Source of the DNA: a virus
Lineage: Duplodnaviria; Caudoviricetes
Virus record (IMG/VR): IMGVR_UViG_3300005323_000358
Span: 1 to 30,213 of that record
DNA: 30,213 nt
Reading direction: 5' to 3' (one strand)
Positions 23,688 to 30,213 of the stretch are shown here, piece after piece. A model generated the notes under the pieces. It was not told where the DNA came from and made no database searches. It saw only the letters and a program-made list of their open reading frames with translations. Each line of letters opens with the position of its first letter. Position 1 is the stretch's first letter. Position numbers and translations under genes: made by a program.

Positions 23688-23849
23688 TTAGCCTGCTTTA
23701 TTGTTGAAAAGTTCAACATAATTAACTTTGGGATCAATTTCTTTTATTTTTTTCGCCCCCATTGGTATTAACAAAGCATCAAGCTTGGCTTGTTGTTCCT
23801 TCGAGGGGCAATTATTCCACTGACCGTTGTAATACCAACCTATGAACAT
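23688..23849 (-). CDS. 53-aa hypothetical protein
   Basis: Read by hand: MFIGWYYNGQWNNCPSKEQQAKLDALLIPMGAKKIKEIDPKVNYVELFNNKAG; RBS AAGGAG. Confidence 0.6.
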   Translation of the reverse strand: MFIGWYYNGQWNNCPSKEQQAKLDALLIPMGAKKIKEIDPKVNYVELFNNKAG

Positions 23850-23994: not shown

Positions 23995-24234
23995 TTATGC
24001 TGTATGGCTTTTATTTCTTTCGCAAATAGCGACATTGTCAATTAAAAAAAAGCTGTTCAAATCATCAACAGATAGTATTTCAGCAATAGCGACTAACTCT
24101 TTAGCTAAAACTTCCTGTTTACCACTTTCAATTCGCGATAACCACCCACCATAATGCCCCATTCGTTCTTCTATAAATTTTTGCATTATACCTTTTGACT
24201 CTCTAATTTCGCGAATCCTAGCACCGATCGACAT
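23995..24234 (-). CDS. Cro-like XRE HTH regulator
   Basis: IGARIREIRESKGIMQ...WLSRIESGK; first gene of the leftward operon. Confidence 0.88.
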   Translation of the reverse strand: MSIGARIREIRESKGIMQKFIEERMGHYGGWLSRIESGKQEVLAKELVAIAEILSVDDLNSFFLIDNVAICERNKSHTA

Positions 24235-24278
24235 ATTAACACCTCGCTTTACTTTTTATTTTACCTTTCGATAAATTT

Positions 24279-24364
24279 ATTATATGTCTCCATTTGCGTA
24301 ATGTCAATATTTTCTTTCTCTATTTGAGAAAAAAATTGATTTTTATCTTAAAAGAAAGTATAAT
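24279..24364. promoter_or_regulatory. Divergent lytic/lysogenic switch promoters
   Basis: Minus strand TTGACA-17-TATAAT (24307-24279); plus strand TTGATT-17-TATAAT (24336-24364); palindrome TTTCTC-tattt-GAGAAA (24315-24331) between them. Confidence 0.85.
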
Positions 24365-24396
24365 TTGATTATAGCGACATGCAAAGGGGGTGTATT

Positions 24397-24768
24397 ATGG
24401 ATAATAAATTAAAGTTCACAATTGGTTCACGCATTAAGCAAGCGAGAGAAAAATCTGGTAAAACACAGAAGGAAGTAGCTACAATGCTGGGTTTTAAAAC
24501 TCCATCAATAATTAGTGAGTTTGAAAGCGGAAAAAAGGATATTACAGCTTCTGACCTTGGGAAGTTAGCTGAGTTATTAGGAGTGTCAATTAATTTTATT
24601 TTTGGAGTAGAAGAAGCACCAGCAACTAAACTTAAGTCTATCGCATTAGAAGAATTGCAAATAATTGAAGATGTCAGAGAATTTGATGAAGTAGATCACA
24701 ATATATTAAATCAATTAAGAGAGCGTAATAAAAATAAAAACAAAAACCTTTTCTCTTTTTCCTCGTAG
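24397..24768 (+). CDS. CI-like XRE repressor
   Basis: IGSRIKQAREKSGKTQKEVA...ISEFESGK; divergent from cro; RBS GGGGGTG precedes ATG 24397. Confidence 0.9.
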   Translation: MDNKLKFTIGSRIKQAREKSGKTQKEVATMLGFKTPSIISEFESGKKDITASDLGKLAELLGVSINFIFGVEEAPATKLKSIALEELQIIEDVREFDEVDHNILNQLRERNKNKNKNLFSFSS

Positions 24769-25204: not shown

Positions 25205-26107
25205 ATGAATTTTGTTGCTATTGATTTTGAGACAGCGAATGAAAAAAGAAATAGCGTTTGTGCTCTTGGCATTGTTTTGGTTAATAATGGTGACATCGTT
25301 GAAAAACGATCATGGCTTATAAAACCACTAGAAGTAAGATTTGCACCAATAAACATATTCATACATGGAATAACTGCTGAAGATGTTAAGTTCGCTCCTA
25401 AATTCAATGAGATATGGAGTGAAATTTCCCCATACTTAGAAAATAACATTATTGTCGCCCATAATGCTGGGTTTGATATAAGTGTCCTTAGAGAAATATT
25501 ATCTACATATAGAATACCTTTCCCAAAATCTAAATATTTCTGTAGTTTAAAGACAGCTAAAAAAATATGGCCTGGTTTATTTAGTTATAGATTAAACGAT
25601 ATTGCCGATCATCTAGCTATTGACTTTATACACCACAAAGCTGAGGATGATGCTTACGCTTGTTGCGAAATAATAAAAAAAGCATGTGAAAAAAATCAAT
25701 ACAGTTCTATTAACGAATTAATATCAGAATTAAATTTTAAGGTAGGAGAATTATCTGACTCTCATTACTCCCCTGCTAAATACACAGAAAACATTCGTTC
25801 TAAAGATGTTAAGCCAGAAAATTTTGATTTTAATAATGATCATCCATTTTTAAATAAGCATCTCACTTTTACAGGTAAATTAGAGTCGATGCAAAGAAAA
25901 GAAGCTATACAAAAGGTTGTTAATGTTGGAGGGTATGGTTCTGATAACGTTACAGAAGAAACAAGATATTTAGTTGTTGGAGAATTAGATTACCGCACAC
26001 TAAAAGATGGCAATAAAAGCAATAAAATAAAACGTGCCGAACAACTACTTGTTAAAGGTCAAAAAATAGAAATGATCACAGAAATGGATTTTTTAAAAAT
26101 GTTATAA
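25205..26107 (+). CDS. DEDDh 3'-5' exonuclease (DnaQ-like) with C-terminal BRCT domain
   Basis: FVAIDFETAN, VAHNAGFD, HHKAEDDA; BRCT FTGKL..MQRKEA...GG...YLVVG. Confidence 0.93.
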   Translation: MNFVAIDFETANEKRNSVCALGIVLVNNGDIVEKRSWLIKPLEVRFAPINIFIHGITAEDVKFAPKFNEIWSEISPYLENNIIVAHNAGFDISVLREILSTYRIPFPKSKYFCSLKTAKKIWPGLFSYRLNDIADHLAIDFIHHKAEDDAYACCEIIKKACEKNQYSSINELISELNFKVGELSDSHYSPAKYTENIRSKDVKPENFDFNNDHPFLNKHLTFTGKLESMQRKEAIQKVVNVGGYGSDNVTEETRYLVVGELDYRTLKDGNKSNKIKRAEQLLVKGQKIEMITEMDFLKML

Positions 26108-26152: not shown

Positions 26153-26205
26153 CATGTATAAATTTTACTTTTTATGGTATGCTACTTTTGAAAGGAGCTG
26201 ATCTT

Positions 26206-27627
26206 ATGATAGCAGTTTATGTACGTGTTAGCACCGAAGAGCAGGCGAAAACAGGTTATTCTCTCGCTGATCAAATTAGACGATGTAAAGAAAAAGCAAA
26301 CACTACCGATACTAAAGATTACATTGACGATGGCTATTCTGGTGAATTTTTAGATCGTCCTGCATTAAATGAATTGAGGAATGACCTGCATGCAGGATTG
26401 ATTAAAACGGTCATTGTGTACGACTTGGATAGATTGTCCCGCGAAACAGATCACCTACTTATACTTGTAAAAGAGTTTGAAAAAAAAGCAGAATTAATAT
26501 TCGTAACTAATGAGTACGCCAAGACTCCCGCAGGTGAGTTATTCATGACAATTCACGCGGCTATGGCAAAATACGAAAAAGAAACAATCAAGAGCCGTAC
26601 AATGCGTGGAAAACGCCAAAAAGCACTCTCTGGCAAGCTTATTTTCGATGATAAGGCCTTTGGGTATGACTTTAATAAAAGCGAGTTTATGTATGAGGTA
26701 AACGCTATAGAATCAGAAGTGGTAAAGCTGATTTTTAACACCTATGTTGACCGAAAATATGGCGTTAGATCGTTGTGTTCTGAATTAGAAGCATTAGGCG
26801 TAACCAATAAAAAAGGTAAGCCATTTACCGTTAGTAACCTGCACCGAATATTAATTAACGAGATGTACGCAGGAACAAAATGGTCATTTAAATTTTATGA
26901 GAAAAAAATAGGACAATACCAGTCCGAAAGAACGCTCCGTGACCAATCAGAGTGGATACCTATAGCTGTACCTGCGATCGTTGATAAAATACTGTATGAT
27001 AAGGTTCAATATATGCTAAAACAAAATGTTAATTTTTCAAAAAGAAATACCCAAAGAGAATATTTATTGCGTAGTATAATACGTTGCGATAGTTGCGGTT
27101 ATTCAATGATTGGATCTCGAAAGATTAATAAGGGCAAAGAATACTTATATTATACCTGCCCCTCAAAGATGGAAAAAAGAGAATGTGATAATGGCTCCGC
27201 TCGTGCTGATATAATAGATAATGAAGTCTGGTCATATATTTTGAAGTGGACTAGAGATGGTTATGATATTAATAATTTAACAAAAAACACATCACCCAAT
27301 ACTGATGCAATTGCAAAAATAAAAGACCAAATAGCTGGTCTAAATAAATCTAAGACCGATATTTTATTTTTAATTAGAAAAGGTAGGATTAACATAGATG
27401 AGGCTGACAATGATTTGGATATTATTAATAAAGAATTGAATACAGTCAATAGTGTTTTAAAAGCACTCACAGAAAACAGCACACAAGAAACAACCATTAC
27501 TAATGAGGATGTTTTAAATGCTGATACTTTTGAGAAGAAAAGGAATATTTTATTGGAGTCGGGATTGGTAGTTCGTGCTCGAAGAACTGGCTGGAAACCA
27601 GACAATATCAAATGGGGATTTAGATAA
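26206..27627 (+). CDS. Large serine recombinase (prophage integrase), SpoIVCA-like
   Basis: MIAVYVRVSTEEQA with catalytic Ser, DRPAL, DRLSR, recombinase domain and Zn ribbon CDSC..C..C. The N-terminus closely parallels B. subtilis SpoIVCA as recalled. RBS AAAGGAG precedes ATG 26206. Confidence 0.95.
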   Translation: MIAVYVRVSTEEQAKTGYSLADQIRRCKEKANTTDTKDYIDDGYSGEFLDRPALNELRNDLHAGLIKTVIVYDLDRLSRETDHLLILVKEFEKKAELIFVTNEYAKTPAGELFMTIHAAMAKYEKETIKSRTMRGKRQKALSGKLIFDDKAFGYDFNKSEFMYEVNAIESEVVKLIFNTYVDRKYGVRSLCSELEALGVTNKKGKPFTVSNLHRILINEMYAGTKWSFKFYEKKIGQYQSERTLRDQSEWIPIAVPAIVDKILYDKVQYMLKQNVNFSKRNTQREYLLRSIIRCDSCGYSMIGSRKINKGKEYLYYTCPSKMEKRECDNGSARADIIDNEVWSYILKWTRDGYDINNLTKNTSPNTDAIAKIKDQIAGLNKSKTDILFLIRKGRINIDEADNDLDIINKELNTVNSVLKALTENSTQETTITNEDVLNADTFEKKRNILLESGLVVRARRTGWKPDNIKWGFR

Positions 27628-27654
27628 CATTGGTTTGTCGTTTGTGTTGCGTGG

Positions 27655-27971
27655 TTCTCAATCCTCGATACATAGGACCTAGAAATACCTAACAATTTAG
27701 CAATATCTCGTTGTGTCTTTCTATCTCCATCCGGCATACCAAATCTCATTTCCAATACCCATTTCTCTCTGCCACTTAATCGGTTAATCTGTTTACTGAG
27801 TCGTTCATTTTCACATTGACTTTCTACAGCTTCTGCCACTATATCAGGAGCTGTACCCAGTACATCAATTAAGGTAATCTCATTGCCTTCTTTGTCAACA
27901 CCAATAGGATCATAGAGGCTCACTTCCGCACGAGTACGCCTCGTACTTCGAAGATGCATTAAGATTTCATT
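27655..27971 (-). pseudogene. sigK: Internal fragment (105 codons) of sporulation sigma factor sigK, interrupted at both ends; probably reconstitutable rather than dead
   Basis: NEILMHLR...EVSLYDPIGVDKEGNEITLIDVL...RFG...KTQRDIAKLLGISRSYVSRIE, with no internal stops or shifts. The SRSYVSRIE variant matches SigK rather than SigE. Confidence 0.93.
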
Positions 27972-29724
27972 TGCTATTCTCACATAACGGCTCAGAATTA
28001 TTCCCCTCAGTTTCAATCAGTCCGTCGCTCTTTGAAAGGAAGTCATCCGGCGGCAATTCAATACCACCGCTGTCATCAGAGCCAAATAGATACACATGAA
28101 CATTCTCGCCGTCCCAAACCACCTTTTTCACAAAGGTGCGTAGGGCGGCGCGTTTTTGTTCAACGCTCATATCGTCGATCGTATCCCTAAAGGTTGTGAG
28201 CATCTGACGGATAATATCAAACTCAATATTAGAAAGGGTGTGACTAGCGGTAAGGCTTTCTATTTCAGCAATACGGCTTTTCATCAGTTCCCCCTCACTG
28301 TGCAGCTCGTCAATCCCTTTAACGATACTCCCCTTAGTTGCTGTATCCTCCAATTCAGCAAGTGATACTACCAACCTAGCAATTTTCTTTTCATTCTTCG
28401 CAAGTGCACTGCACAACTGATCTAAATCGTCGTATCCTTCAAGATTGCCTTCCAATTGTGTTTTGCCTAGCTCAAGCTGACGGATAAATTCTGAGCTATC
28501 TGCGCCAAGTCTTTTTATTTCTTCACAGACAACTCGATCAAGCATATTTCCGTTAGCATTCTTCATATTGCAAACATGACAGCGGCTTTTTTCTTTCATA
28601 GCACAAAGATAAGAATAAATAAACTCGCCTTGTGCATCTAGACGTTTACTCAGTTTCGGACGCATATAGTCACCACAAGAACAAAATAACAGACCAGACA
28701 GTAGCGCAACATTGCTTCTAGGTTTACGGAAGGACTTAGATCGATTCTGCTCTAAATATTCCTGTACCTGAATCCATTCTACACCTTTAATCATACCAGT
28801 ATGTTTCCCCACCGCCACAATCCATTCTTCCATTGAACGTATTTGGTTAGCCTTGCCTGATTTTTGAATAGTACGGTTATATGCCATGATGCCATGGATA
28901 CAGTCAAAACTTTCTTTTCCAGCAAATAAATCTACCTCATTTTCAACTAAGTAGCGATAAGCGTCTCCATCAGCAATCATATACACAGGATTGGTAAGGA
29001 TATTACGAAGAGCAAAACGGGTAAATAGTTTTTCATTTTTTGTTTTGTAGCCATTGTTAATAAAGTAAGTTTCTGTTTTAGTTAATGAATTAGTTTCCAA
29101 AAACACCTTGTAAATCTGTTTGATGAGATCAGCTTCTTCGGGAATAAGTTCTAACTTACAAGCTTTTTTTATTTTTCCATCTACTGTTATCTTCTCCACT
29201 TGTTCAGACTTATACCCTGTTGGCGATATACCACCAAGCCATCGGCCTGTTTTCGATAACTCATGCATATTATCACGTATACGCTCAGCAATCGTTTCAC
29301 GTTCCAGTTGAGAAAATACAGAGGAAATATACATCATAGCTCTGCCCATAGGAGAGGAAGTATCAAATTGTTCCTTAATAGAAATAAAGGAAACATTCAA
29401 ACCGTCCAATTCCTCAATCAGCTTGGCAAAGTCACCTATGTTACGACTTATGCGGTCAAGACGATAGCAGACAATCGCAGAAAACTTCTTTGTCCTTGCT
29501 TCAGCCATCATCTCCTTAAATCGAGGACGCTCCATATTGCCGCCCGAAAATCCTTCATCTTCATATATCAAGATACCTTCGTCATTGCAATTTGGGTAAC
29601 GTGGACGGATATACTGTTTGCAAAGCTCAACCTGATTTTCTATGCTCTCGCCTTTACCTGTGTATTTAGATTTGCGAGAATAAATAGCAATCTGTTCCCC
29701 TGTATTTTCTTTCGTTTGCTTCAC
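27967..29724 (-). CDS. Large serine recombinase of the second element
   Basis: IAIYSRKS, DEGFSGG..RP.F, YRLDRISR, FSQLERETIAERI, LLSGLLFCSCG..C..C Zn ribbon, coiled coil. Confidence 0.96.
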   Translation of the reverse strand: MKQTKENTGEQIAIYSRKSKYTGKGESIENQVELCKQYIRPRYPNCNDEGILIYEDEGFSGGNMERPRFKEMMAEARTKKFSAIVCYRLDRISRNIGDFAKLIEELDGLNVSFISIKEQFDTSSPMGRAMMYISSVFSQLERETIAERIRDNMHELSKTGRWLGGISPTGYKSEQVEKITVDGKIKKACKLELIPEEADLIKQIYKVFLETNSLTKTETYFINNGYKTKNEKLFTRFALRNILTNPVYMIADGDAYRYLVENEVDLFAGKESFDCIHGIMAYNRTIQKSGKANQIRSMEEWIVAVGKHTGMIKGVEWIQVQEYLEQNRSKSFRKPRSNVALLSGLLFCSCGDYMRPKLSKRLDAQGEFIYSYLCAMKEKSRCHVCNMKNANGNMLDRVVCEEIKRLGADSSEFIRQLELGKTQLEGNLEGYDDLDQLCSALAKNEKKIARLVVSLAELEDTATKGSIVKGIDELHSEGELMKSRIAEIESLTASHTLSNIEFDIIRQMLTTFRDTIDDMSVEQKRAALRTFVKKVVWDGENVHVYLFGSDDSGGIELPPDDFLSKSDGLIETEGNNSEPLCENSK

Positions 29725-29762: not shown

Positions 29763-29771
29763 ATTATAACA
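29763..29771 (-). promoter_or_regulatory. Extended -10 promoter for the second recombinase
   Basis: TG-t-TATAAT about 40 bp upstream of the GTG start; weak -35 TTGTTT at 18 bp. Confidence 0.5.
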
Positions 29772-29795: not shown

Positions 29796-29842
29796 AAAAG
29801 ACAAGCCGCTGATCCTATCATAGGATCAGCAGCTTATCTTTT
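29796..29842. terminator. Long, probably bidirectional terminator
   Basis: AAAAGAcAAGCcGCTGATCCTA-tca-TAGGATCAGCaGCTTaTCTTTT. Confidence 0.8.
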
Positions 29843-29858
29843 AGAGATATTCCATCAA

Positions 29859-30213
29859 TTAAATTTTTCCACCTACGCCTTTAAACTTATCTATAAAGGC
29901 AGAATTTTTCTGAAAAACGCTCTGCTTTTTTTGTTAAATATTGAGGATTTAGAGAACTAATTTTTGGAAGAATTTCATTTAGTTCCATTCCATTTCTACT
30001 GCCATATTCTCTTTTTAATGAGTTCAAAATATATCTTTTAACAACCTCTTTATTTAATTTTTCATTATTAATTAATTCTTCCGCTTCACGTTTTTGCTCA
30101 GCTTGAGCAAATGTAAAGAAGACATGAATAATACTTGCTTTATCTTGAATTTTTTCTAAATTAGTTTGGTTGATAAAATCGACTACTAAGCTTTCCTTTT
30201 CGTAACTTCCCAC
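29859..30213 (-). pseudogene. hsdR: C-terminal part of type I restriction subunit R (EcoR124-type HsdR), with a +1 frameshift
   Basis: [12 protein letters not shown]..., [14 protein letters not shown]. Removing one A from the A7 run (29926-29932) restores [21 protein letters not shown]-stop. Confidence 0.8.

Follow-up and report, generated by a model that had tools for sequence, protein, structure and literature searches.

A sigK gene interrupted at two sites by a skin-type element and a tailed prophage in a spore-former of the Sporomusa/Pelosinus group

How can a spore-former produce SigK, the master regulator of late sporulation, when its gene is broken on both sides of the piece that is seen? 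This question is raised by the virus record IMGVR_UViG_3300005323_000358, of which positions 1 to 30,213 were analyzed (this stretch of 30,213 nt is called the window here). The host is a spore-former of the Sporomusa/Pelosinus group; the sequence examined for it was the window itself, a viral record, and the contig of the likely source run continues for ~35 kb beyond the window. In the skin paradigm, one element separates sigK into two fragments. Here, sigK is cut by two separately acquired elements. The excision of each is predicted to depend on the recombinase that it carries, and full SigK would need both excisions. The probability of this reading is estimated at roughly 75%.

The middle piece of sigK is located at 27657-27971 on the minus strand and consists of 105 stop-free codons (NEILMH...SRSYVSRIE) encoding regions 3 to 4.2. 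In a profile search this frame matched positions 111-215 of the 227 positions of the SigK family TIGR02846 with an E value of 8.6e-45, and the match to SigE was weaker (2e-34). Compared with six relatives, the piece showed 85-91% amino acid identity, with 0.05-0.12 nonsynonymous (pN) and 0.70-0.95 synonymous (pS) differences per site. The closest named SigK proteins were those of Sporomusa (85-87%). The two junctions are not an assembly artefact, because contigs from a second groundwater study (run X2), covering 27393-27833 and 27805-28527, bridge both of them with 0 differences. An earlier note on this DNA had described an intact SigK segment between two breaks, bordered on each side by a different large serine recombinase that ends at the junction, and both parts of this description were confirmed.

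The left recombinase (26206-27627, plus strand) has 473 residues, or 482 when the upstream ATG at 26179 is used, and stops ~30 nt short of the crossover. The right recombinase (27967-29724, minus strand; 585 residues) has its TGA stop inside the core of its junction. Both are whole, with Resolvase, Recombinase and Zn-ribbon domains (PF00239, PF07508 and PF13408 in the left protein), the catalytic YxRxS motif and an open frame, and are thus large serine recombinases. They are 22-23% identical to each other and are distant members of one family, which corrects the earlier description of them as unrelated enzymes. Their attachment (att) sites are defined, separate and 315 bp apart.

The upstream break has an AATGA core (27967-27971) at the codons CIE-N-EILMH. 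In the attB(skin) of B. subtilis, as printed in the supplement of PMC6957869, AATGA is found at the same codons, which agrees with the earlier claim that the right junction is the B. subtilis skin break. The attR of the right element comprises 27967-27996 (minus strand), with the element arm to the right. Counterparts of the right recombinase at the same sigK junction were 85% identical in the genomes G011 and G016, 87% in G138 and 81% in G058. In G011 and G016 both sigK pieces are present. The attP deduced from these genomes has its dyad centre at the AA of the Asn codon, with 16-17 of 25 pairs, and its arm is nearly identical to that in the window. Like a skin, the right element thus interrupts sigK in a frame-restoring register and has a SpoIVCA-like serine recombinase at its edge. 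The element of G011 is 25.2 kb long, and its list of open reading frames (ORFs) contained no obvious phage genes. A phylum-wide search for the right recombinase identified it in 2 of 401 genomes.

Ahead of the right recombinase, a TG-TTATAAT box (29763-29771, minus strand) lies behind a terminator (29796-29842), and both are kept in 5/5 aligned copies. This conservation suggests that the recombinase is expressed from a vegetative promoter of the sigma-A type. A sigma-70 scan was below chance (9 versus 14.4), and the support for the extended -10 box comes from its conservation. A vegetative-type promoter is also reported for CD1231 of C. difficile, whereas spoIVCA of B. subtilis has a SigE promoter.

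The downstream break is found at SRIE|K, in the recognition helix of sigma-4, at the end of the left element. In the window this element (1-27657) carries terminase, portal, protease-capsid fusion, tail, single-stranded DNA-binding protein, replication and repressor genes, and these head, packaging and replication functions identify it as a tailed prophage, inserted near the sigK 3' end. Its attL (27630-27665, minus strand; phage arm to the left) contains an 11-bp core at 27655-27665, and the crossover is predicted at the GA of the Glu codon (27658-27659). In run X1, the likely source, one contig diverges from the window at 27655 and extends the sigK frame with KKAIGKL, resulting in a prophage-free junction. 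The 19-base motif at this place had 37 matches in metagenomes, of which 36 were unrelated and one, on contig L084, was sigK; two matches in viral contigs were rejected as chance. On L084, tail, holin and amidase genes are followed by the phage arm, the same 11-bp core as in the window and a SigK end of 16 codons, KKAIGKLGNHLSAEDR-stop. L084:1-9290 would therefore represent the far end of the prophage, with its tail, holin and amidase genes and attR. When the L084 and window arms are combined into an attP, its best dyad centre is the GA of the Glu codon, with 15 of 25 pairs. As a control, a fixed centre reached 15 pairs at 14 of 30,123 window positions; when the best of 24 centres was taken, 30 of 3,000 random draws reached this number. 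Provided that L084 belongs to the window, as we infer, the left prophage has what characterizes a skin element: attL and attR with a common core, dyad arms and the missing sigK piece. The short 3' piece of sigK that the earlier note had predicted beyond the far end of the prophage would then be the one on L084.

This last piece is conserved at the protein level (pN 0.08-0.15 and pS 0.74-0.94 over 16 codons). In an alignment with SigA, it falls on the second half of the sigma-4 recognition helix. With the prophage in place, SigK would be read through into 131-132 unrelated residues that are not SigK-like; the phage arm gives no equivalent C-terminus, and the window prophage does not replace the 3' end of its target.

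Is this arrangement also present in relatives? From the class Negativicutes 401 genomes were drawn, and 64 of these matched the C-terminal part of SigK. The state of sigK was called by the length of the open frame and by inspection. It was intact in 30 genomes, broken only upstream in 25 (of which the 5' pieces were checked in part) and occupied at the SRIE codon in 9, by integrases 40-73% identical to the left one. Among these 25 are G075 and G052, whose ends diverge, G014, which has a deletion, and G081, in which extra fragments are present. All 9 genomes with an element at SRIE were also broken upstream, at the EGNE codons, compared with 25 of the 55 genomes without such an element (Fisher p 0.002, kinship not corrected). 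The three pieces were present on one contig in G103, G088, G045, G128 and G098, where in silico rejoining gave 0 internal stops, and also in G090. A protein search of 8 of the 9 three-piece genomes and a search of G005 identified no second full-length SigK; none of the 9 showed one. The gene in G138 is broken at ENE, EGNE and SRIE, which implies four pieces; its first piece was not found. A SigK micro-piece of ~30 codons is located between the ENE and EGNE sites on L218 (G138:C330, 376-476). G011 was rejected as a three-piece genome and has a two-piece gene with a duplicate 3' copy. Partly decayed duplicates of this kind lie 3-5 kb downstream of the working gene on L120:13467-13748 (G011), L125:8492-8762 (G003) and L126:6569-6722 (G008). 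In G081, a sigK fragment on L255:2222-2437 (G081:C54) ends at GISRSY, possibly a further insertion site, and other sigK pieces are present in the genome.

In 8/8 loci where both ends were available, the attP dyad was located on the same GA, with 15-19 of 25 pairs. The sizes of the 3' elements ranged from 48.4 kb down to 2.4 kb, and the five smallest (2.4-2.9 kb) retain whole integrases. The ratio of nonsynonymous to synonymous substitution rates (dN/dS) of the integrase was 0.09-0.18 in six pairs, G138 included, indicating purifying selection. The minimal elements also have a conserved ORF of 55-65 residues beside the integrase, in divergent orientation and without a Pfam family (L251:15961-16146, L252:4101-4268, L253:4437-4685, L215:807-995 and L213:7340-7684). 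These ORFs possibly form a new family of directionality factors. A profile of them had no match in the window, L084 or G103; weaker look-alikes were observed beside other serine integrases on L149, L161, L144, L182 and L163. For the window prophage, a 53-residue ORF just after the cro-like gene (23688-23849, minus strand) is a weak candidate for the directionality factor. It is 60% identical to the ORF at the same position in the prophage of G103, which has the integrase in common with the window prophage and shares few other genes, and it had no family match and no profile likeness to the ORFs of the minimal elements. In G113, the sigK C-terminus is rejoined without an adjoining integrase; 1.1 kb downstream lies a relic att site, together with a second copy of the last piece. 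Rejoined C-termini followed by relic element DNA were seen on L247:1776-2960, L216 and L248:975-1100, with a duplicate last piece on L247 and L216. Such relics possibly mark an escape route after loss of the integrase. The 3' site thus offers a series from a whole prophage (48 kb) through an integrase-only remnant (2.4 kb) to a relic, with the three-piece layout in 9/64 related genomes, and this series allows a test of whether the host keeps intervening elements as regulators or tolerates them as passengers.

That two excisions are needed and used is likely, because the pieces of five relatives rejoin without stops and shrunken elements keep an integrase under purifying selection. The earlier note had proposed a gene in three pieces joined by two separate, precise excisions; this reading is supported by the last piece with its matching core on L084 and by these five relatives, and the excisions are predicted. 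According to the proposed mechanism, a skin-type island occupies the ENE codons and a tailed prophage the SRIE|K codons, and the right element presumably has the first sigK piece on its far side. Each recombinase would act on the att pair of its own element, aided by a separate directionality factor. By analogy with skin and SPbeta, the mother cell would be the place of both excisions, and full SigK would be encoded only by a chromosome that has lost both elements. The three-piece layout explains why sigK in such genomes would be overlooked or labelled a pseudogene.

The earlier note had further interpreted the layout as an AND gate for sporulation. AND logic follows from the anatomy; a regulatory gate, as opposed to tolerated elements, is not established, with sigK unbroken in 30/64 relatives. 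Most likely, sigK is a multi-site landing pad for mobile elements. During growth the gene is silent, and a terminal cell alone requires it; several elements can therefore sit in it, if each leaves on time. The AND logic is then probably a by-product which selection maintains. That the two independently controlled excisions serve as an adaptive timing device, as a coincidence check or an ordered cascade acting on SigK, is doubtful. The association of the 3' elements with upstream breaks and the persistence of minimal elements with a conserved ORF beside the integrase would fit such a device, as would the observation, reported in PMC5025042, that skin excision sets SigK timing in C. difficile. 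However, the association may reflect kinship, and an excision that is simply obligatory would also lead to purifying selection on the integrase. Of the 64 relatives, 25 have a single break and 30 have none, and adaptation is therefore not established. Moreover, the rejoined proteins retain an N-terminal extension resembling the pro-sequence of B. subtilis SigK, and thus the usual SigK checkpoint seems to be present. Equally doubtful is a more far-reaching version, in which DNA splicing in several ordered steps would build SigK in this lineage, from three pieces or, in G138, from four. The last cut, within the promoter-recognition helix, would go back to a prophage that was domesticated to a 2.4-kb switch; this switch would establish only in genes already split upstream and would impose a second checkpoint or delay on late sporulation.

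Two further explanations are less likely. It is improbable that this lysogen has recently become a dead end for sporulation, or relies on a different copy of sigK, and that the prophage leaves only by lytic induction. The left element does resemble a complete prophage with a cI/cro switch, a recent insertion would likewise leave the middle piece undecayed, and the sigK 3' part is duplicated in G011, G003 and G008. Yet the same site is occupied by long-resident elements of 2.4-6.3 kb without a phage module, and intact prophages in sigK or spsM have been published (PMC3442830, PMC13141910; SPbeta in PMC6957869). Even less probable is that only the upstream excision matters and that SigK functions sufficiently when SRIE is followed by a tail from the phage, in the manner of prophages which substitute the 3' end of a gene. 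The break spares 105 of the ~120 C-terminal codons, and in some relatives (e.g. G128 and G045) the element supplies a short basic tail. These tails are not conserved, however, varying from 5 to 132 residues, and that of the window bears no likeness to SigK. Purifying selection acts on the true last piece, which contributes half of the recognition helix, and even tiny elements retain the integrase.

Several observations weigh against a sigK that is cut by two elements and needs both excisions. The host's own first sigK piece would lie outside the 30,213-nt window, as would any second intact sigK, which may exist. L084 does not overlap the window and is tied to it by the 19-base motif, the core and the symmetry of the arms, and tetranucleotide likeness did not single it out as the partner of the window; because of this missing overlap and compositional tie, the link is an inferred one. 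Synteny with relatives was likewise not observed for the host-side genes of L084. In run X1, a minority variant was present at 28379-28522 (depth 4.4 versus 11.3), close to the prophage-free junction, which may therefore originate from a second strain and not from excision; the junction may be either, the two being indistinguishable. At the upstream ENE junction no branch was detected in X1. The directionality factors amount to candidates, the ORF at 23688-23849 in the window prophage and the ORFs of the minimal elements. Among the relatives, G123 has a second, unbroken sigK 3' part on another contig and is thus ambiguous, and the last sigK piece was not found in G005 or G138. In a short-marker tree, 7 of the 9 genomes with an SRIE element fall in one clade with the window, and the 9-of-9 association therefore does not reflect nine independent events; three-piece genes occur in three places of the tree, corresponding to about three independent cases.

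Compared with known systems, the upstream break shares with the B. subtilis skin (SpoIVCA, with the directionality factor Skr) the gene, the codons, the AATGA core and a serine recombinase ending against the 3' gene piece. In contrast to the single sigK break of B. subtilis, the 3' piece in the window is cut again by a second element. Whole infectious prophages with a serine integrase in sigK are known from PhiS63 of C. perfringens and MMB025 of Alicyclobacillus, and the MMB025 integrase was the best phage match to the left integrase (39% identity, E 7e-74). However, PhiS63 inserts at sigK nucleotide 427, the EGNE site, and the attP arms of MMB025 differ from those of the window prophage; the accessible descriptions of both give a single break. 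The fifteen skin elements of Galperin et al. 2022 (bioRxiv 10.1101/2022.02.25.481979), with split sigK and an edge recombinase, include Negativicutes, but in the accessible text all are described as two fragments, with no mention there of a three-piece gene or a break in the recognition helix. Rebuilding of one gene by separate excisions in a terminal cell has a parallel in nifD of Anabaena cylindrica, from which two elements are deleted in heterocysts (bioRxiv 10.1101/629832). In heterocyst-forming cyanobacteria, 10 of 87 genes are interrupted more than once, by as many as four elements (PMC4874684). These nif genes belong to another phylum and encode enzymes, whereas sigK encodes a developmental sigma factor. 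Publications already exist on single skins, on infectious prophages in sigK and on cyanobacterial nif genes with several interruptions. A literature search, with most subscription papers outside its scope, found no report of a twice-split sigK or of a recognition-helix break; the twice-interrupted sigK is real and well supported.

The left integrase has named homologues in Pelosinus and Sporomusa. With this integrase as the sole query no viral relatives were found, and when the integrase alignment was used as the query, a break at SRIE was seen in 0/43 viral loci. Relatives near 40% identity mostly insert elsewhere, and only 1 of 30 loci abutted sigK. On L136, L137, L139, L140 and L144, relatives of the left integrase abut the 3' ends of other genes, of which the one on L144 resembles yabG. 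Another pair of sites is used in two viral records that contain a three-piece sigK: on L331:2857-3096 (same contig as L303) and L339:2523-2765, a SigK middle piece that starts near residue 69 (KKF) and reaches EGNE is flanked by two serine recombinases, one at either side.

Other features of the two elements concern lysogeny and cargo. The divergent helix-turn-helix pair of the prophage (23995-24768) consists of a cro-like gene at 23995-24234 (minus strand) and a cI-like gene at 24379-24768 (plus strand), and a DnaQ-family exonuclease with a BRCT-like end is encoded within the lysogeny module (25205-26107). Just inside the prophage attR on L084 (8799-9223), an ORF with a LexA DNA-binding domain and a Spo0E-like ORF are present, and the prophage may thus affect the entry into sporulation. 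As cargo, the right element carries the C-terminal end of a type I restriction subunit R (29887-30213, minus strand; PF12008).

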